The notes below the pieces were generated by a model. That model searched no databases. It had not been told where the DNA came from and saw only the letters and a list, made by a program, of their open reading frames with translations. A stretch of 54,405 nt of DNA, the filler included, from Streblomastix strix (taxonomy: Eukaryota), in the NCBI GenBank assembly GCA_008636045.1. It is 3 parts of 3 records of this genome, joined end to end, with 100 filler letters (N's around TTAATTAATTAA, not from the genome) between each part and the next. Parts side by side here need not be neighbours in the genome. Positions count along the whole stretch, not along the records: positions 1 to 18,075 come from SNRW01000643.1; 2 more parts are not named here. One strand, 5' to 3'. Position numbers and translations under genes: made by a program. Below, one piece after another: positions 1 to 45,804 of this stretch; position 1 is the first letter of the stretch; every line of letters begins with the position of its first letter.

Positions 1-1307
1 TGAGAATTTTCTAATGATGGTTTATAATATTGATAGCTAAAGTCGTTTCTGATTCCTTTTTTGGAATAAGTTGATTAAGTTGTTTACCAGATATTTCCAA
101 AGTCTGCAGCTATCTTATATATTTTATTTTTATGTAATTCATGTACTTAAGCTAGTTTATCATCGAATTATTAAAGATGGGTAAATTTATTAAAGTAATA
201 TGTATGATAAGGTTCTTTATTTTAATTATTATTAGCCCAAGCAGATTTCTCAGATAATCCATTAAGATCAACATCATTCTATTCACGATATCGCTTTCTT
301 GTTTCAATTAGTGTTTCATTAAATTTCTTCTAATCATCAGATTAAAAGTACATAAATGCCTAGAGCTAATCTTCAACATTGGTGATAAATTCGTTAGTGA
401 ATTTGAGACCAGGTTCTTGTAATTATTTATTTTTATAAAATCCGAGTAATCATTCAGTTAATTTTGCTTATCTTATTGTGTATTCATCTTCAGTTAGTTT
501 ATTTTTATTTAAATCTGATAATCTATCTTCTCTAACTCGTTTCACTTACTTAAATGTATTGCTTAGATCTTTAACGAAGTGACTTATTATTTTTCTTTCT
601 TTATGTCGTTAATATTATCGTTAAATCTTCTTAGCTGCATGATCTAGTTATATCTAGTCTAAGTTATGTACAAGCATTGCTCTTGTATTGATTAATTGTT
701 TCTAACTAATCGGCTTCAAATCATTGTTTCTTTATTATTTTATTTCATTAATTTATTACACTTATTTATCCTTTAACTCTTATAGTTATCTCTTAACTTC
801 ATTGATTTGTTGACGATTTTTCATTGACTTCCTGACTAGATCGAAAGCCTTAATCTCATTCAGTTAGTCACTATCATTAGCTAATTGATTAGTCTATTCT
901 TATAACTTCGCCACTTACTATCTTAGTTCAATTTACATATTAATTCCATTTAATTTCTCTGCGGCTAGTTTCAATTCTTATTTAGCTTTTATTCTTTATT
1001 GCTATAATTAAATTAACTCTTATTCATCATCTTATTCATCAACCTATTCATTATTTTTTTCATTATTTGTGTCATTATTTCCGTCGTTATTTTCTGTAAC
1101 ATTAATTGCTGGCTTTGCTTGAACTTTGTTGTGAACAAACTCTCTTATCTTAGTAACAATACTCTTTGGTCCATTATATCCTTATGCTTTGATTGTTTAC
1201 ATCAATAATTATTCAAATACTGGTTTGGTTGATTTAGGATCATATTGAGCTTCAAGTTGATTGAGCATATCACGGACTTCGGAAATTAGAAAATATTTTC
1301 TAGCCAT
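1..1307 (-). pseudogene. Hypothetical coiled-coil protein of endogenous viral element (MARKYFLISEVRDMLNQLE...), degraded and truncated at window edge
   Basis: Long intronless frame when TAR=Gln; at least one in-frame TGA (~450); adjacent to the PolB cluster. Confidence 0.5.
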
Positions 1308-1389
1308 TTTTGTATCTGAAAAAAAGTTGAGAAAGACGATTAAAAGTTGATTATGATGATTAAAATTAGAATTTTTACAGCTTCGAAAT

Positions 1390-2301
1390 ATGTCACAAGC
1401 AAATCAATACTTATTAATAATATTATAGAATTTATCAAAATTAACATCACCTGAAGAAATTAGACTGTTCATGTTAGACAATCCTGCACTAGATTAAATT
1501 AAATCATTCATCATTAATAAATATATACATATTCCAACTCATCGTATTGATCGTCGACGTGATAGATTATATTTAGACGCATTACCCAAGAATAGACAAA
1601 AATATACTTAAAATATAAAAGAAACATTAATAGATCCAGCAAATTCATTAACTGATCAAGTAAATCAATTAGTGAAGTCCTCAATTTCAAGATAGATTTA
1701 ACCGATAATTCAGAATGTTAATGGTTTGGTTTAGCTAGATGAATAAACAAGTGAATAATCAAGTGAATAAAGTGATAAAAATACTATTAAATTATCTGTG
1801 AATAAATTCTTGATTAATCATTATTCGTAATAAGATAATAAAAATAATCAATCTACATAGGGTGTATAAACTGGTAATATTATTCAGGGATTATTTGAAA
1901 GTGAAATAGGTTAAAAATTAGAAGCTATATGTGATGCACTATGTGAATACAATGAAATTGAGTCAGGTATTGATCTCAATAAATGCTAGGAACATGGTGA
2001 AGATTATTAAATGAATGTACTAATGGATGAATAGAAATAGATAAATAATGTTATTAAATTAATTGATTCAAGTTTACTTGGAAATTATATTCGGAATATC
2101 TATAGTTCGGTTAATGCGATGATATAAAATTAAACAATTCAAAATAGTAAACCTAAGATGTCAGATCATGAAAAATTTTTGAAATAACTTAGAAAATAAA
2201 ATGAAAAACCTTAAAAATCACCAGATGAAATTATGTAGCACTTATTTGGAGTTAATTATCGAAAAGTTAATCAATAATCACATTTTCAACGATCTGATTG
2301 A
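1390..2301 (+). CDS. Hypothetical ~303 aa protein of endogenous viral element (MSQANQYLLII...HFQRSD*)
   Basis: ATG and TGA in the same frame with TAR=Gln; intronless; followed by TTATTTTT; directly upstream of PolB. Confidence 0.55.
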
Positions 2302-2362
2302 TTTAATTATTTTTAGAATTGAAGCGCTTTTGGCATTTATTTCTTAGTAATTTATTAGTATC

Positions 2363-5300
2363 ATGCGTGTAAATAATGATAAAAATTTATTAGAATCGTT
2401 GATATTAAGCGTTAATTTTCGACAATTTTCCATTTTCCAATAATTATATAGATTCCCAGTATTCTGAACAAATTGTATAAATTATTCAAAATATTGATTA
2501 GAATCGTTAGTATTAGGCGATATTTATCCAGAATGACCATTTTGGCTAGAATCGTGGAGAATTGGGTCCAAAACATCGTGAAGAAGCTAAGATACTGGAA
2601 AGCAGTTATCGTATAGTAGTTACGTTCTATATTAATACCATCAGTCCAACAAATACGTATTACAAAAATGATTTGAAAACGATAGGAGATGTTGATACTT
2701 ATTTAAATGAAATATATTTGTGTGAATTAAAATTTGCATTCAAAATTGCATTTGACTTAGGAATGTTTATTGAACGAGTTGATAGTTAAGAAAATGATTA
2801 ATAAGTAATGTATAAAATCAATCGTCCTCTTGGAGCTAGAACAGAGATGAAAGAACCGACAACCATACGCACAAATTTAGACTTAGCGGATTATAAAAGA
2901 TTCATTAGATACCATATAATTTAAATGTAAGAGAGAATAATAATGGATACCAAAGAAAAAATAGTAGGTATATTTTCAATAATGATTCAAATATTTAGAT
3001 TACCTCACGCTGGAGCTCGTAATCGAACAATGCCTTCATTAAAGAAGCATATTATGAAGCATGAAATAAGATATATTGACCATGAGAAAAATAAGTAAAA
3101 TTGATTTTTTTTGCTTATTCATTTATTTCGATGCCAAATATTGAGGCAAACGGTTCAGTGGTTGCAAAGTGTTATCAGTAACATTCACATATTGCAGCAG
3201 CAAAACGATTATTTTAAAGAATCTATGGAAATAAAATTGATGATAATTATTAGGGATTTAATTTTTCAACAGAAACAGACTAGTTTATTTAGTATGAAAA
3301 TTTAAATATAAATGTGTTCGCTTATGAAAAGACAATGGCAACCTCAACAGCAACACCAGCTAATTAAGGTAGTTCTTCGGGTAGTTATTATCTATGGAAA
3401 TAATATGGAAGAAATTATATAATGAAAAAACTAAAGAATTTAATATTCTTATAATAACAGACTCAATCACCGAATAATAAACGGCTCAAATTTTTTATAT
3501 TTATGATGCTGAGATATTAACTGGTTTAAAATATTGTCATATTTGTGATGTGCAGGCTTATAAGATTAGAGATTCAAATTTATAATCTATTTTAAAAAAG
3601 CAAAAATAATAATGTTAAAATAATGTGAGAAAAATAGTAAAAAAAGTATTTTTTGAAAGATTTCCAAGGCAATATGTTCCTCACATATTGAATAATGTTA
3701 GCTATATGAATCAACCGACATATGGTCAAGAGGATGAATTTAAACCTACAAAATATTATATATCATATGATATTGAAACCATTGAAAGAATCGTAAATGA
3801 AAAATTCGGTGATAGTTCAAAATAAATTTCAATACTTGAATTTATTTAGATGGCAAGTTCAATAAAAATAAAAAATAATTAAAATGATGGCTCTAATAAC
3901 GGATCAGCTGATTATATTTATTCCATTTATTTTAACATAAGTACCCCAAATTTTATTAATACGTGGATTAAATAGTTGTTTATGGAAACCAGAAAAGTTA
4001 TTGATTTAAATAAATATGAGGATGAGACGATACCATAGCATTACGAGGAACCAGTTATTGGCTTCAACTCTTCAAAATTTGAAGTTACTTTGATTCATAA
4101 AAAAATTTATAAAACGATGAATGGTAAATAATTAAATATCTTGGAACTGATTCAAACGCTAAATAAATCATTATTAAACATAATATTTCTGGAATCAAGT
4201 TGCGGTTCATCGATGCGATGATTTATTGTACAAAAATGAAATTATGAAAATTCATAAAAGATTTCACGCAAAAAGCTGATGAATTGAACTAAGATGCGAC
4301 AACTTCAGCCAAATTAAAGTTTCCATATGAATTAATCAACTACGACAACTATAATGAAATAATAAATAATCTTTAGCCATTTCCGATTAATGTGTTTAGA
4401 AATTTAATTAAAAATAAAAATATGTATGAAAGGAAATATTAAAATTATTTAACAATGTATAATTCATTGTAGAACATTAATGGTATCACTAGATGCCATT
4501 ACCTTCGATACTAAAACATTGAAGATACTCGCTTAACGATTCAGCCTTTGGATTACTTAATTGATATGTTCTTTTTTTAAAAAAATTGATATTTTGCTGT
4601 TTATGTCAATATTTGCATGCTCTAATGCTATCAAATATGCTGTTGTTTATATTGACTTCAAATTGGATAAAGATTTTATTCCAACAGACAATTATGCATC
4701 ATTCATACTTACATATAATTATTGGAAAATTAAAGTTTAATATTATATGGAATAAAATAAAAAAAAGAAATAAAGACACAAACAACAATATCAAAGAATC
4801 TGATTGTGTGTTCTAAAGAAAATTATTTCCATCGACAGGATGCCATATATGTAAAGCTCGAATAACAAGTAAAATTCTGCCAACATTAATTAGAATCAAC
4901 AACGACAAGGGTCAATCTGCAGATAATGTCAAACTGTGCAGCTAATTCCGTAAAAAATTAAAGTTGAATAAAAATGGAAATTTAACAAGATTAATAATTC
5001 TAATAATGAACTTTTGTCTGTTGAAGTCGCTTCCAAAGACAACAACTGATGAAGAAATTTATCAAATTTTACGTTTTGGAATCACAGATGGATTATCGTA
5101 AGTCATGCATCGTTACAATGTTGCAGGTGAAGCAAAAATAAATTATTTAAGATATATCAACAGAAAGGTCATCAGCTAAGACAAAGACTACAAAATGACT
5201 CATTTTTCATCACTTGATTTCAATTGTTAATATCCCAGCGTTATGAGCTCAGAGCCGCATAAGTTCATTAAATATTCAGGCGGCCGTATGTTCATGGCGG

Positions 5301-6290
5301 GGCAAATATTGGATAAAATTACTGATAAATAAACAGCAAGAAATTTAATTTATAATTCCCTTCTATTTAACGATGTTAAAGGAACGCCGTTATTTATCGT
5401 TGTTGTTAAAAGATATATAGATGAATAACATATTAATGATTTCATTAATTTTCTTCCTTTATTAAGAAACATAAATATTAAGACTGATTAAAAAATGTTA
5501 GGGTCTTACATGTATAATCTGCTGCTGAAAAATAACATGTAGCACGATAAAATTGAACGAAAATTAACAAATTTATCATCGACGCATGGATAGTTCATGT
5601 CGTTCAATAATTATTATTTATGGCTTCTCATTGATGATTTTCATTTCATTATTGACGATATTTAGTGTGTTATAACATTCTCGAAGCATGACATATTCAA
5701 TTCGTTTGTTAAGGAATTCATGAGTTAAAGAATTAAAGCAATAAATGAAAGGAATAATGGAAAATAACAATTCTATAAATTAGCTATGAACTCATGCTAT
5801 GGAAATGATGAGATGAATTATGAAAAATATTCGCAAACAAAATTACTGAGCTCTGATAGAACATGGTTGTCTCATCTCTAAGGACCATTCGTTAATGATT
5901 AACAATTTATAGAAGAATTATTTGCTGAATAATTTAATGCTGAGAGCTGCAACTGCAGCTCATGCTTCCATTCTGAACATTTCGTGTTAGATAATAGCAA
6001 ATATTGGCATATAAATATTATCTGTAATTTTATGGCTAGAATTTTCGATATGAACTTAATGCATTATATTTGTGGTGATACCGATTCAACGACATGGGCA
6101 ATCAGCGGGAGCCCAAAAGAGGATTACAGACAGAAGTTTAAATAAATCATAAAAGATTAGAAAATTTTCGATGAAAATTATCCCTTTTCTTCGGATAATA
6201 TAAACAATTATTAAGAGTCAGTTATGAGGCTGATGGAATAGCTTGCATTGCTCTAGCCCCAAAAATTCATTACATTTATAAACATATATT
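2363..6290 (+). pseudogene. Protein-primed family B DNA polymerase (Polinton/PLV type), frameshifted and C-terminally truncated
   Basis: ExoI SYDIET (~3765), ExoII GFNSSKF (~4060), motif A LDFNCQYPSVMSS (~5215), motif B KLAMNSCYG (~5780), motif C ICGDTDS (~6070), IALAPKIHY (~6250); several frameshifts and stops. Confidence 0.9.
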
Positions 6291-6299
6291 ATATTAATC

Positions 6300-6764
6300 T
6301 CTATGAAGATTGACTTTATCGATATATAGAGTAAGTATATTAACATTATTTATTTTAATATCTCTTAATGTTCTAGTGCCATCTTGCATAAATTTGCCTC
6401 AACATCCTTCATCTTCTGTATTAAGTAAAATTTTGTTTTCCACTATTTCAAATGTATGTGCAATAACTCTAATTAATTAATGTTCAGACAATATGAAATG
6501 GGCTGATTCTTTAATCATATGTTCATCTTCACTAATTATATCAGGTAGCCATCGACATACTGATGGATCAGGTATTATTATTTCTTCAAATATTGATGAT
6601 ATTCTTCTTGAACGAATAGATTAAACAGACACTTTATCTTATTCCTTTTCGAATGGTGAATCAAATTCAACTATTGCTGGAATTGTCGTTACGGACTAAC
6701 GAGGAGACATTTATTCTCTTTAACTTATTTTTTCAGATGGTGATACTGATCTTTTCTATGACAT
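6300..6764 (-). pseudogene. Hypothetical viral protein (MSQKRSVSPSEKIS...) with internal TGA
   Basis: Open frame under TAR=Gln, converging on the truncated PolB end. Confidence 0.45.
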
Positions 6765-6796
6765 TTATTCTTTCTAAAAATAACTAATTGATAATC

Positions 6797-7749
6797 ATGA
6801 ATAAAATGATAAGTTTATTGGAGTCTTTTCCTCTTCCTTAGTTAGCGTATTATATGCACTTACAGCAATAAGAAACAATCCAATGTTTGCAATAGTGATG
6901 AACACTAATGAAGTTCCAACAATTATATTGAATAGCATTTCATTTATTATTAAAAATATGCCAAAATAAACTATAAAAATTAACGAATTACCAATAACGT
7001 TCAATGAAGATGGATATGATTAAATAGGTAAGGTAATGGCTTTGATTGATGCAGATAGATTAATGTATAAGAATATTATGGATTCTAATTGTATTGTACA
7101 GGATATATTACCAAAAATTAATACTAATGATGCAATTGAATACCTTAAGAATAAAAAGGTGCCATAGATCGATGAACTATACTAAGCACTATTCAAAAGA
7201 GAGACATTTAGACGTTGTAGTGTATATGTTAGTGATAAGAATAATACAAAAATAATCTCTGCAGCTAACATTAGAATCCAACATGAAAATATCGTTCCAA
7301 ATGTGCTTTAATAGTTAGTGAACTTCGCTTATGAATGTGATTAATCAAATAAGATTATGGTTATGTTTACATGCTATCTGATATACGAACGCAATCATCC
7401 CCATGAAGATAGAAATGGAAGAATGGGACCATTATTGTTTCAAGAAAATATATATAAATTCGCTGAATCATTTGTTCCTCTATCGACTGCATTAAGATAT
7501 AATAAGAAAATATAACATTTAATGAATGAAATATTCAAGAGCATCAGTTTTGGAGAAATAATGAAGAAACAATAGATCAAGAGTGGTGATGCAGCTATCT
7601 ACAGAATAGAGATACGGGAGATAGATTTGAATAAATTTTATGAGATTATTAATGACAATTAACGAACAAAGCAAAAATATTACACATTAGATTTAGAAGA
7701 TAATATCTATAAACTAATTATAAGATTATTGAATATGATTAGGGTGTGA
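6797..7749 (+). CDS. Fic/Doc-domain protein, degenerate motif; start likely frameshifted (first in-frame ATG 6883)
   Basis: YERNHPHEDRNGRMGPLLF at ~7385-7440 resembles Fic consensus HPFxDGNGRxxR; homologous to 44926-45660. Confidence 0.8.
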
Positions 7750-8255
7750 TTTATTTGTGAGCATGTGAAGCCGAACGCATTGCCGCAGAGTAACGATCCC
7801 ATGCACAATAAAAATATAGAACTCAGCGATAGGAATTCCGTGCATCTGTTAACGATTTGTAACTCCTCTTGATTCGACGTCTTCAGAAAACTATCATAAC
7901 TAACGTACAGGATTTACTTTAAATTAATGATAAAATTGATCGTTATAACTAGCCAAATAATCAATGAGTTTGATTTATTTTTATTGTTTAATAAATGTAA
8001 CTCGACGGAAAGACTTTGATTAAAAAATAAAGAGAGAAAGGATATAAAACTAGTGCATTCATATAAACTGTAATGGATTAATGTGACGGTAAGATGTAAT
8101 AGCAATAGGCAAAAAAAATAAAGATATTACATTAATGAATCAAGATAATTGGACAAATAAGGTAAATTAAAATGGATTAGTTCAATAGATCAATGAAATT
8201 ATTTTTGTCCATTAACTTTTCCCATTAATGAGTAGTAATAATAATTATAAAAGTT

Positions 8256-8414
8256 TATGGCAGGGGTCCTATTTGAAATTGATCCATTTGTTCCACATAC
8301 TAGTGTGTATGTGCTAGAATCATAGATAATATTATATAAATCTCTAGATGGAATGTGGAACGGAACGGAACAGAAATTTTTGAGTTTGTGAAAAAGTGCT
8401 GCTATATGCCATAA
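8256..8414 (-). repeat. Inverted, diverged copy of ~165 bp iteron repeat A
   Basis: Reverse complement contains TTATGGCATATAGCAG, AAAATTTCTGTTCCGTTCC, CTAGCACATACA, GTGGAACAAAT, CTGCCATA as in the copies at 8638 and 11681. Confidence 0.8.
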
Positions 8415-8637
8415 TTTGATAATCTTTCATTTTGAATCCTAATTTGAATAGCTAGTGAACTTTAAACCTAAATTATACTGCCATAATAATTCATTTATGG
8501 CAGCCATCTAAATGTTCAGCTTTCAAAATTGTTCCACCTTCATTTTTACAAATATATTGAAGGATTTTTAATTATCATAGAATCATTCATTTCCAAAAAT
8601 AATGGTCACGTCTCCAATACATCACATAAATAATTTC

Positions 8638-8805
8638 ATTTATGGCATATGGCAGATGGCAGACAAAAATTGCTGGCGTCTCTAGGATTTGTTCCGTTCC
8701 GTTCCTTGTTCCACCTAGACAAATCACTTCATTTACCCACTCCACTAAGACACACACACTAATGGTGGAACAAATCCGTGTTCCATTTTCAAAATGCCTG
8801 CCATA
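8638..8805 (+). repeat. ~165 bp iteron repeat A (ATGGCAN x3, GTTCC x4)
   Basis: Direct repeat of 11681-11846; shares CCTTGTTCCACCTAGACAAATCACTTCATT and CTAATGGTGGAACAAATCCGTGTT. Confidence 0.9.
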
Positions 8806-11629
8806 AAAGTTTGGACAAAAATAAATTCATTTCATTCTTCTTTACCTCCTATACTACCTTTTCAATGAATTCATTATCTTCAATTATTTTCATATATTTT
8901 TAGTAATTCACATTAGATGTTTCGATATCCTCTTCACTCATCATTTTATCATAATATCTCAATTAATCTTTATTTAATTTATATATTCTAGTTCTTAATC
9001 CATTAATTCTTGGTGTTTATTCTGTAAATTTATGAATCATCGCATTCTTAAAAGTTTTCAATTATCAATTCTACGGTTTGTATTAATTTACAAGAGATAT
9101 CGGAATACCTTATTTGAACCGTTCGTAATGTTCCATAATAACATCATCTATTGGAGATCGACTAACATTTATCAGTCATTTCTTTGCTTCAGTCATTGGA
9201 ATTAATGTTGGATTGAACTATGAAATATCTCTTTCAAGTAGGAATGTCACTAAATTTTCATAAATCTCTTAAATATAGCTCTAGCTTAATTCATTAAAAT
9301 ATTCAACATCTTCCTTATATTTTTCACTCACTTAATGAACAATCTTGCAAGCGCATACTAAATGACGTCTTTCATCAATGCCCAATTATACAAACATATC
9401 AGCGTTTGTTACATAGATTATATTCAATACATTCTCAGCTGTTCTTCTTAGCTAATTCTTTTCATTAATTCTTATAGTTAGATCAGAAATAATTGATTTC
9501 ATTACTGTTGCAACACCTTTCTTTGAATCATTATAATTCATTATTTCATTCTATACTGCAAACTTTTTATTTTCAAGTACTGAATTGAATTTTCCTGTGA
9601 ATTCATCTATGTTTGTTATATTAGAGCAACTATATCGACTTGTTAGTTCAGCAATCACATCAGTGAATCTATTTTTACCTATTCCTTATCTACCTTGTAA
9701 TACGATTGTTGTTCTAGACTTTTTTCCAGGATTTTGTATCAACCACGCCATCCAATTAAGAATATATTCATAAACTCGTTCATCACCCGCAGCAATAGTT
9801 TCTTTATTCAAATCAAGGTACATTTACAAGCATTCATAATCAATTGTATCTAATTTCTTATATTTATACCATTGGAATACTGTGAGAATCTTTGGATCTT
9901 CACTTATGAATTTACATCCTTTCTTAACAAACTTTTGAAGCATATATTTTAAAGATTTGTTTTACAGTTATTGGTTTTGAGTTATCTTTTTCATCAGTTT
10001 TCTTATTCTTGAAATTTTTATTAATTTTCTCTAATTATTTATAGACAGTTCCTTCTAATTTATGATATAAAACTTATGTATCGCAAATAGCATCATATCT
10101 TTTAATTGCATATATATCTTCAGTTTCACCTTCATAGTATACTAATAATCTTGTTAAATCCATAACAATTTATTCTTCATTTTCATATTCTCCATTAGCT
10201 GCTTTCTCTTACATGTCAAGTAAAGTGAAATCATCAGTTAATTCAATTTTATTTGGAATCAATGTCAAGTTAATTAATACTTATTTTTCCTTCTTTTTTG
10301 CTTCATAATTCTTTTTCAATAATGGTTTAATTGTCTATTCGTAGTAATCTTTATTATGGTATCTTAAGATTTTTGTAAGGATCCATGGATTTGGTTTGCG
10401 TTCATAATTAGATTAAGCTTATCCATAGTTCTTATCAGCGTTTACAGTTAATTTATTGAATTTACGTATGTTATCTAATCCTTTAGCTCTAATAGATTCA
10501 TTACTTATTTCATATTACCCACAGAATATGCTTAGAAGAGATACTTCCATATTGATTGGTTGTGGATAGTTATATATATCAAGATTCTTCAATCCATCAA
10601 CACACGTTTATGCAAGTTTATCATTCATTTATTCAATTGCACCGTCTTCATTGATTTATACTCCATATATTCTATCGTGTTACTATTATGCGTAATCCTT
10701 ATATGACATCTCAATATCTATATTCCATTTGTAAAATATCTCTCGCAAGCTCGCTAAACGTGATGCATTTCCCCAATCATTAACTGCTTCATATTTGAGT
10801 GTAACTCGTTAGTTATTTTTAGTTTCTCGAATAGCTGTGTTTGAAGCAACTACTCGATTCTGTAGTATCTCATTTGTCTCATATCCATTTTCAATTTTAT
10901 ATTAAATCATTTATGCAAATACATCAATATCAAAACTATCTGTTGTAGCTATTTTTACATTACGATTGGAAGGTAATCTATAATTGTTTCTATTTTAATA
11001 GATATTTAATCCTCTATGAGTAGTCTTAACTAAATCTACATTTAATGGAAGTGAATCAATTAGATTTTATCTTATTTTATCGATTTCTTCAATTGATTTA
11101 TCCTTATGAATATCTATATCAACAACACATAGATTATCTTCATCAACTAATGATAAATCAATTAATTTGCCTGTTATTTATTATTTTTTACTTTCCTATT
11201 AGCTTATTTTTGTATAGTTTACTGTATTAATCATAACATCTTTAACGCGTTCAATTATTGTTTTTGAATCTTATTCTTACATATATGATTTTGCTATCGG
11301 TTGTATCATTTCAAGAAATATATTATCATTTAATTTTTTTTCTAATCTATATGTTAATTTCTAATTTGAAATTCTTGTTTCAAGATCACTTCAGAATTAA
11401 TTAGATCATGAATGAATTCGTCATATTTTTCTTCAATAATATGCTTATTCGTAGGTTCATTTGTCTGTTCATTTGTCTGTTCATTAATCATTTGATCAAT
11501 CATCTCTTTTGCTTTCTCTTCTGCTTTCGATTTGCGAATATATTTACGTTTTGGTCCTTTCTCAAGTGTCTCACATTTCACATTTGTTTGTTGGTTTGAT
11601 TTGCCTTTTGAAAATTCTTCTGTTGCCAT
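8789..11629 (-). pseudogene. Prim-Pol (bifunctional primase-polymerase) + PriCT-like + D5/SF3-like helicase, ~945 codons, with internal TGA stops
   Basis: N-terminal VVDIDIH and VKTTHRGLNIY primase motifs (~11000-11130); Walker A IVLQGRQGIGKNRF (~9665-9710); FAVQNE Walker-B-like; TGA at ~9066 and ~9178. Confidence 0.85.
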
Positions 11630-11680
11630 TTTACTTTCGGATAAAAAGTTCATATAGTTTCTTAAAACAGTTTTTATTTA

Positions 11681-11846
11681 ATTTATGGTATATGGCAGAT
11701 GGCAGACAAATTCGTCGGCAGTTAAAATTTCTGTTCCGTTCCTTACCTTGTTCCACCTAGACAAATCACTTCATTAGCCCACTCCGCTAGCACATACATA
11801 CTAATGGTGGAACAAATCCGTGTTTCATTTATAAAGAGGCTGCCAT
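11681..11846 (+). repeat. ~165 bp iteron repeat A, upstream of the primase-helicase
   Basis: Direct repeat of 8638-8805; inverted relative to 8256-8414. Confidence 0.9.
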
Positions 11847-12442
11847 ATTTCATTTGCAGGGACAATTCACTTCATTTATCCTCACCATTAAATTTTTTCA
11901 TTGTTCCGCTTAATTCGACCGAATCATCAGTCTCATTGCTAACTTTTAACATCATATTTGTGATCAGCATATGAACATTAACTAAGAAATCAATTTTCAA
12001 ATCAATCAGAAAACATTAATTTTTCATTATATATTTTGATTTTTTATTACCTATATATTATTTTTAAAATAATTAAATAGGACATAGAAATCTCTAAAAT
12101 TTTCTCAATTTTTTATATCTCATTCATACTCTTCACTAAGGTCATATCGTATACGGAGAATTCAAAAATGATATTTATTTGTAATTCTGGACCAATTTGT
12201 CACCTTCAATTTCTTCAATTAACCTTAATTTTTATATACATTTTCCATATAAAATATTTCTTATGATTCGTCCATACGATTAATCATTTTTCATTCCCCA
12301 TGTGTAATTGAAAAACCTTGGAGATCCCCCATATTTTCTTACACTGTTTTACTACAAATAAGCAATAAATTTTTAATCTTTAAAAAATTCTCAAAAACAA
12401 AATAACTGTATAAGATTAAATTCATAAATTAATTCCCAAGTA

Positions 12443-12764
12443 TAGTAGGCAAAAGAATCTCACTGCACAATGTAATTTAACTCAAAAAATTAACTTATTG
12501 CATTAGTGATCACCATAAATTATTACCATAAATCCTTCTCATTTTTCATTTTTACCTATTTCACACCCATAAATTATTTTCATAAATCCTATATATAAAT
12601 TATATCAATAATTCATATTCAAAAAATATTTTTATTATTTATTTTTCACTGCTTCTACTGATAAACTATTTTTATTTTTCATTACAATTAATTGTATCCA
12701 CTATTGTTTTTCCGTTATTTTTAAGTTTTAATTCCATAGGGCAGTGAGATTCTTTTGCCTACTA
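12443..12764. mobile_element. MITE-like element with 24 bp perfect terminal inverted repeat
   Basis: TAGTAGGCAAAAGAATCTCACTGC (12443-12466) and its exact reverse complement (12741-12764); AT-rich non-coding interior. Confidence 0.7.
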
Positions 12765-14157
12765 CTATGGTAAATTTCAAAGAGATGAATATGAGTTTGA
12801 AGTATAATAAGATATCAATGATTAAACGTATAAAGTTCATTATAAAATGAGTCTATCAGAGTTCATAAAAAATATCTTTAAAATTGCAAAATAAAAATAT
12901 ATCGATGCTATGACAAAGAAAGTTGATGAAATAGTTATTGAAAAACGAACTGTGGCAGATTTGTATTATTATTATATTTCAGTTTAATCATAATATGAAC
13001 CTTCAAAATAAAAAATAAATAAAAAAATAAAAAAATTGAAAAAGACGCATAATAAGCGGTTTATATATCCAGCCAGTAATCTGCTTAAGGTGGCGATAAT
13101 GAAAATATGCCCTATTTTCCTTTCAAAACAAAATGAAAATTGGTTAAGAAAATAAATTAACATAAATATACAAACAATAAATATGTATCGGAAAATGATT
13201 ATAAATTAAAACCATTATAAAGGCTAAAACGACTTTATTTCTCTGTAAAGTTAAAAAGTTGGGAAATAGATATAGTTTTTTCAATCGATTTAATCTTGTA
13301 AAAAAACAATGATAAAGGTGATGATGCTATCTTTGAATAAAATAAAGTATAAAATATATGAGAAAAAAGAAGAAAAACAATTATATATTTATTTTTTATA
13401 AACATTAACACATAATATTTAGTGATATTTCAATTGATAGATAAATCAGCAGCATAAGTAGTTGGATAACTATAAAAATTAATTATAATTTTTATGTGAA
13501 TAAAATTAGTGGTGATAGTGAGAAAGGATTTAATAGCTCGTGTTTTGCATTTTTTGTCCATAGAATAAAACTAATGGATATTTCACTGAATCAAAATTCA
13601 CTAATCATAATCGAGTTGTCGAATCAAATATTCGTACAATATGGAATATGTTTAGTTAAAAATTTAATTATTTTTCAATAATTCAATAAATGTAAATAGT
13701 AGTTGATACATACAATAATACACAACATCTTGCGTTTCAAAATAAGTATAGTCCGTATTAAGTTTAATTATTAAGAGATTTAGAAGGATAGTATATACGT
13801 TCATAAATGAAGAAATTAGAGCGATAATTAGCAAGACAACGAAAACACTGCATATTGTCATTTAAAGTAGGAAGCATAATATTAATACATCTTGATTTCT
13901 AACATAATAAAATTTTATGAAATAAAGGCAAAATTCCAATAAGTTAGCGGAGGTTACTCGATACGTAAATGGAAATGTTTTATACAGATCATTGAATCAT
14001 TCATATAAAATAAATATAACAAAAATACCTTCATTTTATTGTAAATATGTAAGTAAGAATATATAATCTCTTCCAGAATATTTTGCTTCAGAGTTTTTAT
14101 TTAGATGAAATAATAAAAATTTATTTATTTATTTTTTAACTTTTTTTCCCATAATAA

Positions 14158-14514
14158 ATGGCAGCTATTGAGACAATCAACGATACAACCAATTAATCAT
14201 TACAAACTAAATCAGCCGCAAGCGAAATCTACGACAAAGTGTTTTCAACAAAACAAGGACGTCAAAAGAAATATATCGATAAAGAATAAGCATTTATTGC
14301 TGCTAGAGAACAACGCAAAAATGTAGGAATTAGAAACGAATAAGATTAAATAAATTATGTTTCTAAAGTTAATTATATGCAACTACTCATAATAAAAAAA
14401 CTTAAAAAATTAATCGAAATTTTAAACAATTTGATTATAATTAATGAGTTGATTAAAAAGAATGAAAATAAATTAGGCATTAATGAAGATATTAATGATT
14501 TAATCAACATATGA
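14158..14514 (+). CDS. Small basic 118 aa protein with AT-hook-like KQGRQKKY motif, possible DNA-binding protein
   Basis: ATG..TGA in frame with TAR=Gln; sits on the other side of the iteron inverted repeat from the second primase-helicase. Confidence 0.55.
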
Positions 14515-14669
14515 AACGCTAATCGATTTGTTTTTTCATGTGTGTAAGTGTGCAGAGTTGAGACCCCTAAAATGGTCAAAATATAAAAAATTGGTCGGTA
14601 CGTCGGTCGAATTTATTTTTGTGTTAGTATATGTGTTAATCATGGTAATTGAATCTAAATGTCCACTTT

Positions 14670-15150
14670 CATTATTTCTGTCTTATTTATCTTGTACTTT
14701 TATATGTGATGTTCATTAGCTATGGAGAATTAGATCTAAATTCAATACAAGACAGAAAGACAAGACAAGAATGAAAAGTAAAAGATACCAAAAGTTGCGG
14801 GACATACAGACAGTTAAACAGATTGAGATTCCATCCTTAATTCGACATAAAACATATTGGAATGAATATTATAGCTTAGAACCAACATAATCGGTACAGA
14901 TATATGTAAACATATTGATTCTAATACATCAACTATATATCATACATTATTTTTTACAATCTGTCCAACTGTCCATCTGTCCATCAACTTTAAACGATAA
15001 AATTTTTTCTGTCTTATCTTGTCTTTTCTGTTACAACTAGGATTTCACATTAATCTTCCATGGCTAGTGAACATCACTGATATTATTAAGACAGAATAAG
15101 ACAGAATCTGTCATAACAAATATTTCACATTAATTCTCTATAGCTCATGA
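14670..15150. repeat. Imperfect inverted repeat B (~14670-14830 vs ~14960-15100) with GTCTT/AAGAC pentamers and CTGTCCA heptamers
   Basis: GTGATGTTCATTAGCTATGGAGAATTA (~14706) pairs with TAATCTTCCATGGCTAGTGAACATCAC (~15051); AAGACAGAAAGACAAGACAAG pairs with CTGTCTTATCTTGTCTTTTCTG. Confidence 0.75.
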
Positions 15151-15159
15151 ACAAAAATA

Positions 15160-16740
15160 ATATTCATTCATTTTGTAAAATATTCAGTTGAAATTTCTAT
15201 TTTCTCTTATTCCTCACGTAATTCATCTTTATCTAAATCATTCATCATATCATCATAAATTGAATAATTTTCTTCTAGTAATTTATATACCCTAGCTTAT
15301 TTTTTATCAATATATATTCTTTGCTCAGTACATTTTTGCAAGATCGAATGCTTGAAGCTTCGTTCATTGCAGTTATTTGGTTTCATTAAGCTTACCTCTG
15401 ATATTGGAATGCTATCTTCAAATTTCTAATAGTTTTGATAATAATATCATCAACTGGTGTTCGACTAACATTTAACAAATATTTTTTTGCATCAATCATA
15501 GGAATATTGGTTGGATCAAATTTTGAAATATCTCTGTTTAGGAAGAATGTTAATAAATTATCATAAAAATCTTTATCCATTCTTTTGCTCAGCTTATTGA
15601 AATATTCATGATCTCCTCTATGAACTGCTTTGCATTTTATCACTAAATAGCGTCCATCACTATTATCCAATAGGATTGAATAGTCATTGTTAGTTAATAT
15701 AATTGAATTGATTACATTCTCAGCTCTTCATTCTGGTTAATTATTCTCATTAATTCTTATAGTTCTATCTGTAATTATTGTCTTCATTGCTTGTGCAGTA
15801 CCTTTCTTGGACTCGTTATAATTCATCATTTCATTTAGAACTGCAAACATTATATTCTCAACAACTGAATTGAATGTTTCTGTGAATTTTTCGATTGTAG
15901 AAATGTTTGGTTGACAATATAGTGAGAACATTTCTGAAATAGCATCTATGAATCTATTTTTACCAATTCTCTGAAGTCCTTGAAGAATGATAGCTGTTCT
16001 AGGATTTTATCCAGCAATTTAAGCAATGAATGCAATCCAATTAAAAAAATATTCAAAAACCTCTTTGTTTCCACCTGCTATTGTTCCATATGTCAGATAA
16101 TTAATGAACATATCAATCTTTGATTCATCAACTTATTCTAATTTTTCATACTTAAATCCTTGAAAGACATTGAATACATTCGGATTATCTGAATTGAATC
16201 TAACTCCTTCAACAACATATTATCCACTATATTTTTCGAAAATATCTTATACTGTTATATGTTTTTTACCATCATCCCATAATCTAATTATGTGCATTTA
16301 TTCATATGCGTTAGTCTTTGTTTTTTAGCGTATTACATTAGTCTCTTATTAAGCATCATATTCTTTGATTATAAACACTAATCCAGATTCACCAGCATAG
16401 TATCTAATTACGTTAGTTAAATCAGTTGCAATATCTACTTCTTATTTATACTCTCCTCTTGTTACTTTCTCACTTATGTTTCCAAATATGAATGAATCAT
16501 TGATGTCAATTCCTTATTTTTCAATCATTTCCAGATTTATTTCATGTTTTGATTTATTTTTTTTTGTAATCTCTTTTTGAACAATGGTTTAAGAGTTGTT
16601 TCGTAGTATTCTTTGTTATGAAGTTTAATAATTTTCGTTAGTATCCATGCATTAGCTCTGCTGGAATATCTTCCTTTTCTATCGCTCCAATGTTCATTTG
16701 CCTTAGGTGTGAGTATATTATTTCTATAAATATTCAAAGA
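15160..16740 (-). pseudogene. Second D5/SF3-like primase-helicase, 5'-truncated (primase domain absent), frameshifted
   Basis: WILTKIIKLHNKEYYETTLKPL, Walker A ILQGLQRIGKNRF (~15950-15990), FAVLNEMMNYNESKK, DGRYLVIKCK; clear paralogue of 8789-11629. Confidence 0.85.
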
Positions 16741-18075
16741 AATTTATGCCAAATCAAATAGAAAATGCCATATAAATGCCAGTGATCATGGCATAGCGTT
16801 AAATGTTATAAATTTAACAATCAAATAGTTTAATTCGCATATATTTTTATTTTTACATATTAAAAAACAGTAATTAATATTGTACAATAATTAATATTAT
16901 AAATATTTTATGCATTATTGAAAAAAAAATATTTTTTCATTTCGATGATTTTAAACTAAATAGAAAGAAAACAAAATATTTAATATTAAAAAAATAAACA
17001 TTACTTCATGCTTCAACAAAACATTCAGGTAAAAATATATTTTCTGAATATAACATTCTATGATATATATACGTTCAGATTTTAGCAACTCTCTTTACCA
17101 TCTTCTTCGTTTAATACGATTATAAATTCATGTTGGCATATCATAAATTCTATTGTACATAAAGCAGAAAAATATTATTTAATTATAATTTAAATTTAAA
17201 AATTAGGTATTAGTATAAACATATTTTAATATAATTAAGTTAAAAAGAAGTTCTAAAAATTATTGTATATTATATAAAAAATAAATCTAAATATAACAAA
17301 ATAATACCTGAATAAACAACTGAATATAAAATTTAGCATTATTTTTATCTACATCAAAAGTTACTGCGGTTTTAAAAGATGCAAACATAAGAGCTGAAAA
17401 TGAATGAAATACAAAATAAAAATATGCAAAATGTTAATAATATAAATAAAATTGTAATACATTTCAATACTGGACAATTTTAAACAGTGAATAATTACAT
17501 ATCGATTCATAATCTCGAATTTAATGAAAGTAGCTGAATTTAGGATGAATTCTAAATAATTCGAATTATTTGCATAAGCGGAGAATAAAAAAAATTAATT
17601 CTGTAAAATTAAATTAAATAAAGAAATTTATCTATCATAATAAAGACGTTATGTTAATATTTATTTCGGTTAGGTTAACTGAAGCCAATGTGCAAGTATT
17701 TATTTTCCTATATAAAATTAATATTATGAATATTTGGATAAAACATTAAAAATGACAACTGCTAAACTAGATTTTTGTAATTAAACAATAATTTAATATT
17801 AATGCTCATACTTATAATAAATTTCTTAATTGGAGATGAATAACAATAGATATCGTCGAATAAAATAATATTTTTTTATTATCCATTTAAAGCTTTATAT
17901 GCATATATAAATTAAATTTTAAATTATTTTTTATAAATATAATAATTGATTAAAAACATTTGGATATATTGGCAGATTGGAATGACGAACTGCTTACAAA
18001 ACAAGATTACAATCAAGTTACACCACATCCACTAGACCCAAATCTATATCGAATAAGATGTGAATTTTTCAATAA

Positions 18076-18175
18076 NNNNNNNNNNNNNNNNNNNNNNNNN
18101 NNNNNNNNNNNNNNNNNNNTTAATTAATTAANNNNNNNNNNNNNNNNNNNNNNNNNNNNNNNNNNNNNNNNNNNN
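18076..18175. other. Artificial contig spacer
   Basis: 44 N + TTAATTAATTAA + 44 N. Confidence 0.99.
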
Positions 18176-36250: not shown

Positions 36251-36350
36251 NNNNNNNNNNNNNNNNNNNNNNNNNNNNNNNNNNNNNNNNNNNNTTAATT
36301 AATTAANNNNNNNNNNNNNNNNNNNNNNNNNNNNNNNNNNNNNNNNNNNN
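36251..36350. other. Artificial contig spacer
   Basis: 44 N + TTAATTAATTAA + 44 N. Confidence 0.99.
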
Positions 36351-36513: not shown

Positions 36514-37335
36514 TCAGTGGATTGATCTCTCGGAAATGGTCTATCTAATTTGATTCATTATCTCATCTACATCTTAATCATTAGGTATAGTGAAACCAAG
36601 ATTCATCATTATAATACCTCTTTTATTTAACATATCCTTAATGACATGGTCAATTGATACCGCTATTGGTAAATTATTTATATAAATAGTTGATCTTTAC
36701 TCTATTAAAGGATATTTATTGATACTATTTTTATGTAATCTATGGACCTTATAATACCTCCCATCAATGTCTTCGTTAATGAGTTCAACTGAGTATATAT
36801 AATCATATTACTTATCTTAAGGTACTAATCTAGGTTCCATTTGTTGTATTGTATTACTATAGTCAATGTTCTCACGTTAAAGCTGTTCAATTAATCTACT
36901 TGTATTAACCTCAAAGGTAATGTGTGTTTGTTAGCTATTTTCGTTAATTGAGTCCATTATATCTGTAACAATATCAAGATATTTAATATTTGTTTTCATA
37001 CAGATGATATTAACTAATCTTGGATTAATATATGTTCCTCTAACTTCATTTATATATTCATTGATTAATTGATACTCACTAAGTGTGGAGAGCTAGCTGG
37101 TTTTCAAGCCAGCCCACTTATCGTTAATAAATTGCTTATATTATTTGTATAATTGAGTTGTAGATATATTCTTTAATTACTTATTTGGTTATTCGAGGTC
37201 ATTAATCTTTTATACTAGTTTCGCTGCATTAATGTATCCATCTTAATCTCTTATCATTATCTCAAATCCATTATATGTTCCGATAGTGAAGGTTTCGTTA
37301 TTGGATGTAATTTTAGTTGCTGTTGGGTTAGTCAT
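36514..37335 (-). CDS. KilA-N domain protein (273 aa)
   Basis: GTYNGFEIMIRDQDGYINAAKLV ... VRGTYINPRL, hallmark KilA-N motifs; intact frame. Confidence 0.88.
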
Positions 37336-37364
37336 TTAGCTTATCGATAAAGTAATGGAAAAAT

Positions 37365-37719
37365 AAATGAAGTGTAAAAATAGAATAATCGTAGATTCTT
37401 AACTCGATGAGTTAATTCAAAGTACATTAATATCGTTAATGATCTGGTTAATTGTATCATTTAAAATCCTTTCATTGGTTTATATATTATACATTCGACA
37501 TAATGGGATCATTTGCTCTAGTTTATTAATGATTCGTTATTTAAGTATAGTTTTATTCTATTTAACTGTATCCCATAATTCCGTTTGCTAATCCATCAAT
37601 TACTTTATCATTAATATTTGTTCGTTATGTTTAATAAGCTATTACTTGCATTTAGGATTCTAGCATTCTCCTTAATCTATATTTCCGTTGAGTTATGAAG
37701 GCTATAAGTCATAATCCAT
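37365..37719 (-). pseudogene. Small viral hypothetical protein, probably frameshifted
   Basis: MDYDLQPSQLNGNIDQGECQNPKCK... open frame under TAR=Gln. Confidence 0.4.
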
Positions 37720-37769
37720 TTACATACAGGTAAAAAAACGAAAAATAGAAAACTTTAATTAAATATTCA

Positions 37770-38327
37770 ATATCACATTATCATATCCTTATTTAACTCT
37801 CCAATTATATCCTATTCTAATACTATTATTTATGGATTTAATTAACATTTATTTTCCTTTTCATATTATTTTCTCCTCATCTATTGAATCTCACTATATG
37901 TATACCTAGATTATGGTTCTCCTTCAATGTCGGAATAATTAGTATCATTAACGTTTTTAATACTATCTTATTATAATTTCTTATCATACGCAGCTTTGAT
38001 TTTCTATTCGATGTTATCTTACTATAATTACCTATCATTATCTGCTTTGATTTTCTATTCGATGTTACGATTCGGTTCCGAAAATTATAGCTAACCAGTC
38101 AGCGATGATGGCTTTGCTAAGCAAGTAGATTAATGAGGTGATAATCGAAGATTCTCAGACAACTAGTTGGCTGATTAGTCCGTAGTCTATTATTCAAGCA
38201 ATTTATCGAGTTTCTCATTTATATCATTTAATGACAATGCTATCTCGAATTGCTATTATGTTTCCTCTATCATCTTAAGTATTTTACGCATGTATTCATT
38301 TATGTCATATATATCATTCTTATCCAT
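37770..38327 (-). CDS. Viral hypothetical coiled-coil protein with internal NIEQKIKA duplication
   Basis: MDKNDIYDINEYMRKILKMIEE...; 51 bp-period direct repeat at ~37994/38045; 3' end uncertain. Confidence 0.45.
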
Positions 38328-38359
38328 TTTGCCATTGAATAAAAAATAATCAAAAAATA

Positions 38360-38569
38360 TCACTTAGGTCCATTAATGTATCGATCAACTCCACCAGCTA
38401 TCCGTTACCCTACTCCCATAGCTGCTCCTACTCCTGGATGAATCATACAAACTGGACCTGCTAATGTACCCAATACCTTATTCAATGTTGGGGCAACCCA
38501 ACCTGCAGCTTTAGTTATACCTCCTAATATTTTGCTACCGAAATTTTTCAATCCAGACCAAAAATCCAT
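38360..38569 (-). CDS. 69 aa Gly-rich amphipathic protein resembling the adenovirus protein VI membrane-lytic helix
   Basis: MDFWSGLKNFGSKILGGITKAAGWVAPTLNKVLGTLAGPVCMIHPGVGAAMGVGQRIAGGVDRYINGPK*; intact; divergent from the putative MCP. Confidence 0.75.
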
Positions 38570-38629
38570 TTAATATAATAAAAAACTAATCGATTAATAT
38601 GTCTAAGCTGTTTATTTTTTGTAATCTAA

Positions 38630-40595
38630 ATGTCATTTGCATCAAGCGATTATCTGAAACGATTAGCTCAAGCACAACATTCGGATTACATTAACTCATA
38701 CTCATAATTCTAGGAAGTAATGCAGACATAAACTATAGTAGCATAATCATTTAATTTCTCTAAGCAATAATTCTATGATTAACTAGTGACTTAACTCACG
38801 AATGATGGAGCACATTATACTAGAGCTCCACTCGGGGCAAGAGGTCTCTCTACCTGTTCATGTGTTTAAACTTGTTAGATCAGTTGGTAAATTTAGATAC
38901 CAGCGAATACATTAGCGATATAGGTTAATGGGATAAAGAGTAATGGTGCAGCAGGTTTAGCTGCTAATAGATAAATATCAAATTATAATGTTTTTGATAC
39001 TAATAATTGGATAACACCTTAATCAGTAACAATGGAATCAGGTGTTGAAAATAATTAATAGAGATATAATATTGATGAGGAACACATTAAATTTTGGTTA
39101 GGTTTCTCAACAGCTTGTGAGCCATTTAATTAGATTGCTATATGCAAAGATTTGTAGAAACTATGGGATACATCAATATATGCTAGAATGTAAGCAATAT
39201 TTGCATCAAACTCATTGACTAACGAATGTACCGCTAATTTTGTGACTGTTTCACCACCTGAAAGTATAGTATAAGGCAAACGTCATTGTGGGGTATTTAT
39301 TGATATACCTACTGCTAAGATTAGTGTTGCAGGAGCTTTTAAATTACCTAATACCCTATGATATAGTATTTAGTAGAGTAATGGATCTGAATTAGCTAAA
39401 CCCTATCTTCAACAGCTTTCCCGTATTGACTAGAATTTATGCTTAATTGCATATATAACTCTGGATGAAAGATTTCTTATAAGACCTGAAGGTAGTTTGG
39501 TTGAATAAATACAATCCAGTTGATAATTCATATCTAGCCTATACAATGATTACACCAGAGAAACCTGATATAATTTACTTAAAAAATAGAGCTTACAATG
39601 AATATGCTTCATATGCTATTCGACTAGTTAATATGGAAGGTAAACCTAATACAACTACTATACCTACAGCCACTATAAGTTAGATTAAATATGCTAAATT
39701 TAATAAGCTATATATAAATAACCTATGCTTTAATATAGAGAATGAAGCAGTAATTGTTGATATGATTCGTTAAACAAGATTAGTTAATTTTCCTACATAA
39801 ATTTTATGTACTTAATCATCAAATTACCCTGCTAGTAACATTGCTGATGGTGGTGGATTTATTTAATCAATAATGTCATTTGCTAACATCAAGTCGATTT
39901 TCTTCACATTTGCTATGCCATAATATCCTACATGGGTCTTCCCTGTTCTATTTAAAAATATTGATTTGATTATAGATTAATGACATGTTATTTCAAGTGC
40001 TTATCCTGCATTAACTTAAGATGTCTGTAGATAAATGTTCGATTGTTTCGTTGATTAAGATATAGTTAGTGCTTCATCTGATTTATATCATTCATTGGTG
40101 TTTGAAAACGAGTCTATTGATGATCATAGCTATCCATATGGAATTGAAGTTGCTGAAACAGTGGGTTAACTTAGGCCAGTATCTAATGTATTTTATGCAA
40201 CGACACTATATTAGGGATCTAAAGCAATTAAGACATACTATCCTAATAAGTTTATGCTTGCATGGAAATTGGCCAGTGATGATTCATTTATGAGAGGGTA
40301 TAACTCATCTAAGATAGGTGCAAGAACTAACGTACAAGTATAACTCGGTATGACGCATGTAAATGCTATATGCACGGATGAGCCAATTATACCCGCTGAT
40401 CTAGACTAAAACAACTTTAGTTACTTTACCTCAACTAGATGTTACCCCAATATTAAGAACGTTAAATTGACTCCATTAACCCACTAACTATGCGATGGAA
40501 TTGTTCGTATAATGTTTGATGATAACCCCGATCCACAAGTGCTATCATTAGAGGTCATTGGCGTGATAAGTAGAAGTGCAATTAGATCTGGATGA
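38630..40595 (+). pseudogene. Putative major capsid protein (double jelly-roll), frameshifted
   Basis: ~650 codons, beta-strand-like alternating hydrophobic segments (IKSIFLTFAMPQYP, IDLIID); largest non-fibre gene of the packaging module; no diagnostic motif, so the call is contextual. Confidence 0.55.
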
Positions 40596-40718
40596 AAACA
40601 AGTAGTTATTTTTACTTAAATTAAACGGAACATAAATCGAAGATATTCAAATAATTAACGACAAGGATAATGAAGGACAATTTTTAAGACAAATAGCTCA
40701 TTGAGTAACTTGATGGTA

Positions 40719-41125
40719 TGTTGAAGGAGTTAATTAATACAGGCTAATCAAAAGGATAGATTCATCCACTTTACTATGAGTTATCTAATCTTAGTAGCAA
40801 CTTTGATATAATGAATGAACGACTTTACTAGTTTAAGCGTTAAAGTGATATAGAGTAATATAACAATAAGCTATACAATGAAAATCACTACGACTATATA
40901 AAAACATATAATAAGTGCAAAGAGGAGATAAACATTAATCCAAAAATAATCAAGATAAAATAGTACCTATTAATGGATGCTACTAACGAAGAAAAATAGA
41001 CATATAATTAGTTTGTATCTGAATAAAAACATAAGTTGTTTTGTGACTACTATTAATTAAATCCAATCATTTTAAAGGATCGAATTGAGCCAATATAGTC
41101 AGATAGTCAAGGTACTTGATTAGCT
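40719..41125 (+). pseudogene. Viral hypothetical protein, frameshifted
   Basis: Protein-like frames (MLKELINTGQSK..., IVPIMDATNEEKQTYNQFV). Confidence 0.35.
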
Positions 41126-41328
41126 CTTTGCACTTGTCTGAAAGTATTACTTCATCACTATCATAGTACTTATTTTTGATCAATTAATACTCATGCTAAT
41201 TGATGTCGTTAATGTGATCCGTTAATGCTTTATAGATATGCTATATTTCATTATCTGAAGCGTTAATCTTATGACCTAGTTATTAAGCTATCGTAAAGAA
41301 CTAATCCATTTCATAGATACAAAAATAA

Positions 41329-43566: not shown

Positions 43567-43580
43567 TTTAGTTAATTTAA

Positions 43581-45660: not shown

Positions 45661-45804
45661 TTTAAATCAAATATAAATATGATCTGAGAGATAATTACTA
45701 GTGTATCATTAATGATAATAGCTTGCACAAAAATAATAAAATGGGGGTTAATCATATATTAAATACATGTAGATAATGAAGAGATTAGTGATGAGGTAAG
45801 GAAC

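Follow-up and report, generated by a model that had tools for sequence, protein, structure and literature searches.

Gene and Repeats at the Locus

The window analysed here, i.e., the whole stretch of 54,405 nucleotides from the genome of Streblomastix strix (assembly GCA_008636045.1), consists of three contigs of about 18 kb joined by two spacers (N44-TTAATTAATTAA-N44, at 18076-18175 and 36251-36350). At positions 8256-11847 it harbors a gene related to primase-helicases, accompanied by three copies of a repeat; the neighbourhood of this unit is represented by positions 1-18075 only. A first-pass annotation of the same DNA had put the unit forward as a possible self-contained mobile replicon, while the analysis of the gene, of the repeats and of their flanks at other loci points to an internal replication module of a larger, decayed virus of this gut protist. 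When translated with code table 6, the window yields 167 open reading frames (ORFs) of at least 100 amino acids, versus 3 under table 11. The features of the unit are as follows:

8837..11629, minus strand: pseudogene (code 6) of a primase-helicase with Prim-Pol and NrS-1-like superfamily 3 (SF3) parts, carrying two TGA stops and two frameshifts and lacking the motif-II His
8256..8414, minus strand: repeat A (family 1), inverted copy, from alignment
8641..8805, plus strand: repeat B (family 1), about 32 bp beyond the natural gene end, from alignment
11684..11847, plus strand: repeat C (family 1), 55 bp 5' of the ATG, from alignment
8478..8540, no strand assigned: back-to-back pair of terminal motifs with a partial arm, between A and B
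11861..11907, plus strand: extra partial copy of the repeat centre

The gene starts at position 11629 and has its natural end near 8837; its sequence is spread over three frames, the reading frame shifting near 11390-11348 and again near 9952-9909, and is interrupted by TGA codons at 9178 and 9067. Moreover, the histidine of primase motif II, kept in 76 of the 82 pattern-matched code-6 relatives, is an asparagine in the window copy, which is dead. The SF3 helicase part matches DUF5906 (E 1e-15) and NrS-1 (E 6e-23), and its Walker A, Walker B and arginine finger motifs were located. Because Pfam detects a Prim-Pol domain in only 1 of the 37 intact relatives, the assignment of the N-terminal part rests on fold and motifs. 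In the structure model of the intact relative P0006 (pLDDT 90.8), residues 16-212 superpose on the Prim-Pol domains of pRN1 and NrS-1, the matches being 3m1m (Z 9.2, root-mean-square deviation (rmsd) 3.6, 155 residues aligned), 1ro2 (Z 8.9, rmsd 3.8, 158 aligned) and 6a9w (Z 8.2, rmsd 4.0, 142 aligned), while the match to the NrS-1 helicase reaches Z 26.4 (rmsd 4.6, 365 aligned). Across the 37 intact relatives, D82, D84 and H120 are invariant and D147 is kept in at least 90%. As modelled, the gene family is a Prim-Pol domain joined to an NrS-1-type SF3 helicase; in this respect the fold and the NrS-1 match bear out the first-pass annotation, which had called a Prim-Pol and an SF3-like helicase. 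The same combination of Prim-Pol and ring-type SF3 helicase in one chain exists in the NrS-1 phage polymerase, pRN1 ORF904, PriRep of Staphylococcus aureus pathogenicity islands (SaPI), PrimPol of African swine fever virus (ASFV) and poxvirus D5; however, these share 9-19% identity in structural alignments and belong to other hosts and elements.

Repeats B and C are direct copies with 82% identity (135/165), whereas A is inverted and 63-64% identical to both. Their local alignment scores (87-215) lie far above the maximum of 33 found in 300 dinucleotide shuffles, so that the existence of three repeats of about 165 bp was confirmed. At one end, each carries tandem 7-bp units; these are followed by a pentamer array, by about 50 nt of spacer and by pentamers in an inverted arm, up to the inverted terminal motif. 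The terminal octamer (TATGGCAG) occurs 7 times in the window versus 0.93 expected, always within 8256-8805 or 11691-11847; ATGG(C/T)A units with a 7-bp period are three each in B and C and two in A; GTTCC is found at 56 sites of the window versus 36.5 expected, 16 of them in or beside the repeats. The heptamers and the clustered GTTCC reported earlier were, thus, recovered, and short tandem motifs (7-bp triplets and GTTCC arrays) are present beside the putative initiator gene. The analogy with large T, an SF3 initiator that binds pentamer arrays, is loose, the N-terminal part being a Prim-Pol domain. A family-1 profile run over the 54-kb window retrieved no further full copy, the other virus-like cluster (third contig, see below) included, and a 23-nt repeat pattern had no match in viral contigs. 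No published description of these flanking repeats was found in a literature search that covered few subscription papers (the 2007 Maverick paper, for one, lay outside it).

The repeats might be transcription signals (3'-end hairpins or promoter elements) of an internal Maverick region rather than origins. The position of C just before the ATG would agree with such a role, as would that of the pair A/B and of a second pair, A2/B2 (see below), downstream of convergent genes and in equal orientation relative to each transcript; in addition, all five repeat units of the two families can fold into a long imperfect stem. Nevertheless, the RNA folding of the repeats is weak (z −0.5 to −1.7) and they have no Rfam match; a general signal would be expected behind many genes and in a form independent of the helicase subtype, whereas full family-1 copies are confined to this unit of the window. 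We regard transcription signals as quite an unlikely explanation. As DNA, the folding z is −2.5 for B, −0.4 for C and −2.3 for A, and the inner inverted arms are weak when taken singly (3-15 of 200 shuffles score as high).

Organization of the Flanks at Other Loci

On the left side, the unit is preceded by the following features:

4565..6310, plus strand: family-B (protein-primed type) DNA polymerase, broken, C-terminal part (PHROG 1907 DNA polymerase, E 3.7e-7 for 4970-6310)
6493..7749, plus strand: Fic/Fido-domain gene, multicopy (Pfam Fic, E 0.033, weak)
7761..7967, plus strand: small ORF ("orfS") 3' of Fic, convergent with the helicase, in the constant left flank

The context of the gene at sister loci was drawn from predicted gene models extending beyond the gene, which were compared with the window. 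Upstream of the gene, the models P0008, P0111, P0119 and P0500 read into C, P0057 reaches the edge of C and P0025 is linked to it via an N-terminal peptide. Downstream, 8 of the 167 screened models reach near the natural 3' end and continue: P0025, P0108, P0125 and P0233 enter repeat B or the left flank, P0117, P0122 and P0451 run into other repeat-like peptides, and P0069 into unrelated sequence. In particular, P0025, P0108 and P0125 join the helicase 3' end to 7747-7951, antisense to orfS, and P0233, together with P0241, enters repeat B and runs on to 8596. Seen from the other side, 15 of the 60 Fic models continue into 7740-7960 (orfS), P0283 corresponds to the Fic block up to 8193, P0473 enters repeat A (E 1.8e-13), and P0273 and P0296 enter the family-2 repeat A2. 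The Fic gene has 40 homologues, all from S. strix and mostly named Fido domain. The relatives keep a repeat both upstream and downstream of the gene, at the same positions as in the window, which ties the repeats to the gene as had been supposed, and the Fic-orfS block adjoins repeats at other loci as well.

The assembly contigs gave a further indication. Fic and helicase genes lie on one contig, as judged from equal size and adjacent locus tags, in 2 of the 24 Fic contigs of at least 3 kb (6418 and 3625 bp), versus 0.20 expected (P about 0.02), the 14%-coverage match P0298 being excluded. A Fic/helicase pair on 1579-bp contigs was discounted, since both genes cannot fit one such contig. Some truncated helicase copies are joined to virus-like sequences: P0060 is fused to an integrase-like stretch and reads into 13213-13335, P0107 to a sequence resembling, by eye, a published S. 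strix capsid protein (PMC10120064, supplement), and P0113 to the capsid-like gene at 38761-39147.

Elsewhere, gene models join the Fic/orfS sequence to the helicase gene or to repeat A, and the proposed left end of the 3.6-kb unit (8256-11847) is thus internal. This bears directly on the idea of a self-contained replicon bounded by terminal inverted repeats (TIRs) and inserted beside virus genes. It is true that the outermost 8 bases on the two sides match perfectly in inverted orientation, that a single gene lies inside and that the family is highly multicopy. However, the identity of the two ends falls from 8/8 to 8/12, 11/20 and 23/40, and the ends are not specific to the unit, as each of the repeat copies is bounded by them in its own right. 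No target-site duplication was seen at the unit, whose flanks differ and share just the TA that belongs to the motif. Moreover, inverted similarity between the surroundings of A and B reaches outside the unit (8192-8220 versus 8805-8831, E 1.5e-4), partial copies extend beyond both ends, the left flank is kept at other loci and across helicase subtypes, and the window copy is dead. Such a replicon appears very improbable. The first-pass annotation had itself named constant flanks inside a larger virus as the observation that would speak against it, and this constancy was found, through the gene models, on the left side.

The same evidence bears on a reading of the 165-bp units as miniature inverted-repeat transposable elements (MITEs), flanked by TA and inserted independently near the gene. 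Each unit does have its own short inverted ends, and the TA at the outer edge might be taken for a target duplication. Yet the units lie in the same places on either side of the gene at several further loci, they are absent from the host-like parts of the window and from elsewhere in the 54 kb, and the layout recurs with another family of unrelated sequence; MITEs are, accordingly, an improbable source.

A Second Primase-Helicase with Its Own Repeats

The same contig contains, beyond the right side of the unit, a second set of features:

12748..13990, plus strand: integrase-like (rve-type) remnant, broken (motif reading by eye only)
14158..14514, plus strand: small ORF ("orfS2"), convergent with the second helicase
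14670..14825, minus strand: repeat A2 (family 2), inverted copy
14957..15110, plus strand: repeat B2 (family 2), about 80 bp beyond the end of the second gene (8-bp-period triplet and TGTCT-type pentamers)
15190..16860, minus strand: second primase-helicase, divergent, broken, without the 5' (Prim-Pol) part (Pfam DUF5906, E 1.3e-7)

The second helicase is 55% identical to its nearest row and forms, in a quick tree, a branch of its own. A2 and B2 share 65% identity (score 112 versus a shuffle maximum of 45) and are arranged beside their helicase as A and B are, with a small convergent ORF beyond them; in the window, this family adjoins the integrase-like remnant instead of Fic. The same literature search returned no published description of a second helicase with its own inverted pair. 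A sequence homology between families 1 and 2 was rejected, as 27-291 of 300 shuffles score as high and what they have in common is the layout alone. The evidence concerning the small ORFs is equivocal: BLASTP between orfS and orfS2 is not significant (E 18), whereas their local score of 65 exceeds the shuffle maximum of 52 (0/1000), so that orfS2 is possibly homologous to orfS.

The pattern, which consists of two loci in one window plus the tails of gene models, brings together two unrelated repeat families, one layout and two enzyme subtypes, and gives a hint that cassettes of enzyme and origin may be swapped. Co-evolution of an enzyme and its cognate site would produce such a picture, and so, equally, would a slot-wise exchange of modules.

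Two side observations concern these subtypes. The models P0097, P0108, P0117, P0122 and P0451 carry, up- and downstream of the gene, tails made of three-residue triplets, which may reflect additional repeat families of 9-bp period; for a third helicase subtype, 9-bp triplets are suggested by such tails at the protein level only. In alignment A2, P0002/P0011 and P0006/P0026 show a shared Prim-Pol half combined with different helicase subtypes, which suggests recombination between the Prim-Pol and the helicase domains.

Distribution of the Family and Relationship with Mavericks

With the N-terminal frame of the gene as query, the 120 homologues listed out of 132 were all from S. strix (35-90% identity). 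A profile search of 50% representatives gave 21,014 matches with E ≤0.001, of which 529 with E ≤1e-30; a second profile retrieved 93 proteins, the named ones belonging to Trichomonas vaginalis (clusters of 198 and 350), Histomonas, Monocercomonoides and S. strix. Some members of the T. vaginalis clusters are named "Prim-pol domain family", and the Histomonas member "Poxvirus D5 protein". As far as these searches indicate, the primase-helicase family is expanded in S. strix and T. vaginalis. Matches to bacterial plasmids (15 records, all below 60% identity, 22-30% in the 12 listed) involve the helicase part only. Viral contigs searched with P0006, P0367, P0364 and alignment A6 gave no match, nor did metagenome contigs searched with alignment A2 and P0345.

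Two loci, L001 and L002, provided real DNA for 2 of the 407 pattern matches. In L001, an intact relative, 57% identical to a T. vaginalis protein, adjoins a DUF4108 gene (E 5.7e-6, just under the cut-off) and a Pox_A32-like ATPase gene (E 0.002), and the locus further has a gene for an 837-aa polymerase-like protein (by motif only, without a Pfam match). The relative in L002 consists of the helicase alone and is accompanied by a small ORF convergent with it and by a DNA_pol_B_2 gene, i.e., one for a protein-primed DNA polymerase B (pPolB; E 5e-32). The small ORF of L002 is not significantly similar to orfS (165/1000 shuffles) and marginally so to orfS2 (58 versus a shuffle maximum of 56). Both loci (L001 1-9384, L002 1-10323) are Maverick-like contigs filed under bacterial metagenome-assembled genomes, and they are likely mis-binned protist-virus DNA.

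According to the published surveys, about 40% of the T. vaginalis genome consists of Maverick elements. Among 1705 elements of class 3 (TvMav3), 91.8% have an internal primase gene, a standard component of this class, and the other genes include pPolB (74.3%), integrase (82.5%), A32 ATPase (90.8%) and DUF4108 (58.8%) (PMC12289875, Suppl. Tables 4-5); in class 1/2 Mavericks of the same species, the primase is found in 13% of the elements and its position varies (PMC12289875). A total of 2,716 Maverick primase genes was reported for T. vaginalis (PMC7845603). Switches between pPolB and a module formed by an archaeo-eukaryotic primase (AEP) and an SF3 helicase are described as common, and Polinton-like viruses (PLVs) as often swapping pPolB for a primase-helicase (10.64898/2026.06.19.733378).

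TvMav3 (PMC12289875, PMC7845603) is close to the window module in being a metamonad Maverick with a multicopy primase beside pPolB, integrase and A32 ATPase, and a T. vaginalis member of the Prim-Pol/helicase family shares 27% identity with the window gene in the N-terminal part and 42% in the helicase. It differs in that code 6, the Fic neighbour and the flanking repeat pairs are features of the window, the accessible text on TvMav3 making no mention of the repeats. The S. strix endogenous viral elements of the Metamonada capsid group (PMC10120064) share the likely host and code 6, count 820 capsid hits and have the primase-helicase named as a common replication gene; that study, in the portion available, catalogues capsid genes, and no description of the window module or of its repeats was found there. 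"Mobile helicases" and PLV end modules have been described in which a D5-like primase-helicase is flanked by inverted or direct repeats, proposed to be origins (for inverted repeats beside PLV primase-helicases in particular), the whole being a replaceable module (PMC11296320). Those modules, however, lie in or at TIRs together with tyrosine recombinases or GIY-YIG nucleases, whereas the window module has the look of an internal one, and neither type of enzyme was identified next to it. Transpovirons (PMC3671162) are likewise small, capsid-less replicons tied to larger viruses; they are, though, linear plasmids with 6-8 genes and an SF1 helicase, and the window unit is known as integrated sequence alone.

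Interpretation of the Module

Taken as a whole, the data favour, with a probability of about 0.56, the gene and its repeats being an internal replication module of a decayed Maverick/Polinton-type oxymonad virus, the repeats being likely its origin or loading sites. The polymerase with the PHROG 1907 match lies about 2.5 kb from the end of the primase-helicase gene, and pPolB-like, Fic and integrase-like genes share the contig 1-18075 with it. The virus-like cluster at 36-48 kb, beside which the unit had been thought to sit, is not its physical neighbour, because spacers separate the contigs.

Several points weigh against this interpretation. The linkage at sister loci comes from gene models, in which introns may be false and distances uncertain, and from matches of locus tags and contig sizes; 22 of the 24 larger Fic contigs are without a helicase among the matches listed; and truncated copies are also fused to unrelated, host-like or transposon sequence (e.g., P0069, P0078, P0104, P0110). 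Neither capsid nor A32 ATPase genes were identified on the 18-kb contig by the Pfam and PHROG searches, in which the integrase-like remnant at 12748-13990 had no match either. L001 and L002 have no such flanking repeats, L001 being cut before the 3' end of the gene, and since they are without them the repeats are not a family-wide need. Finally, the T. vaginalis proteins found here are only presumably the Maverick primase of PMC12289875.

A possible, if doubtful, alternative is that gene and repeats form a mobile enzyme-and-origin cassette, which parasitises the virus or travels with it and moves or is swapped between Mavericks. A circle of 3.04 kb, with the gene and one repeat, could be looped out through the direct repeats B and C. 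Fic adjoins family 1 at one other locus (P0473) and family 2 at others (P0273, P0296), and in the window family 2 has the integrase-like remnant, not Fic, as its neighbour. The pPolB gene on the same contig could make the primase-helicase dispensable, and the variable primase of class 1/2 Mavericks and the repeat-flanked "mobile helicases" mentioned above are further points in favour. Finally, 48 of the 80 intact environmental relatives lie on contigs no more than 700 bp longer than the gene. However, the excess of contig size over the gene ranges from 59 bp to 18.8 kb without a peak (8 of the 80 contigs reach at least 10 kb); because of the missing peak, the short contigs fit a fragmented assembly and not small circles. 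Neither a circle junction nor an empty slot was observed, the unit is without a target duplication, and homologous recombination between Maverick copies would explain the exchange of modules without any mobility of their own. The more specific proposal of interchangeable cassettes in oxymonad Mavericks, with palindromic repeats matched to the enzyme subtype and a self-replicating circle of about 3 kb, excised through the direct repeats, that parasitises, or moves between, endogenous viruses, we consider unlikely. If true, it would provide eukaryotes with a minimal replicon of the nucleus, and the proposed "mobile helicase" route of replicon turnover with an example from nature; mobile cassettes would, if real, also show replication-module turnover in elements that occupy about 40% of the T. 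vaginalis genome.

Returning to the internal replication module, a mechanism can be proposed for the intact copies, in which the repeats are likely the candidate origin or loading sites of the enzyme. The helicase ring would be loaded on the spacer that separates the inverted arrays of pentamers, and A and B, as an inverted pair, would provide each strand with a start site; by analogy, plasmid RSF1010 has paired, oppositely oriented priming sites. The Prim-Pol domain might prime at the tandem triplets, a precedent being the sequence-specific priming by the NrS-1 Prim-Pol, for which a particular short motif serves as the site (PMC8718748). This primase route could represent an alternative or a supplement to pPolB, genomic spread and copy number would depend on the integrase of the virus, i.e., on Maverick integration and not on the 3.6-kb unit, and each enzyme subtype would have drifted together with its own repeat sequence.

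The unit is a single decayed representative of a Maverick gene type already known, and the proposal of an undescribed element falls with it. Its remaining value lies in a concrete candidate origin, an origin for such enzymes having been only hypothesised in the accessible text of PMC11296320. Two subtypes with two unrelated repeat families on one contig also make a reciprocal test of specificity feasible.

Other Features of the Window

Fragments of the family-B polymerase probably extend upstream of 4565 to about 3086; the part at 4565-6310 has no Pfam or PDB sequence match. Directly before the integrase-like remnant, at 12443-12764, there is an inverted repeat with 91-nt arms (70%) and AGTAG-type outer ends, which resembles Polinton termini and is possibly a mini-element or a Maverick terminus. 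On the second contig (26376-34021 and 35263-36250), long inverted repeats were found (331 nt, 89%; 87 nt, 100%; 88 nt, 93%), which might belong to a long-TIR element or be artefacts of amplification or assembly. The third contig contains, at 36517-48080, a separate virus-like cluster without family-1 repeats, with a KilA-N gene (Pfam, E 8e-12), a second Fic gene (E 0.017) and ORFs that are ATPase-, capsid- and fibre-like by motif only.

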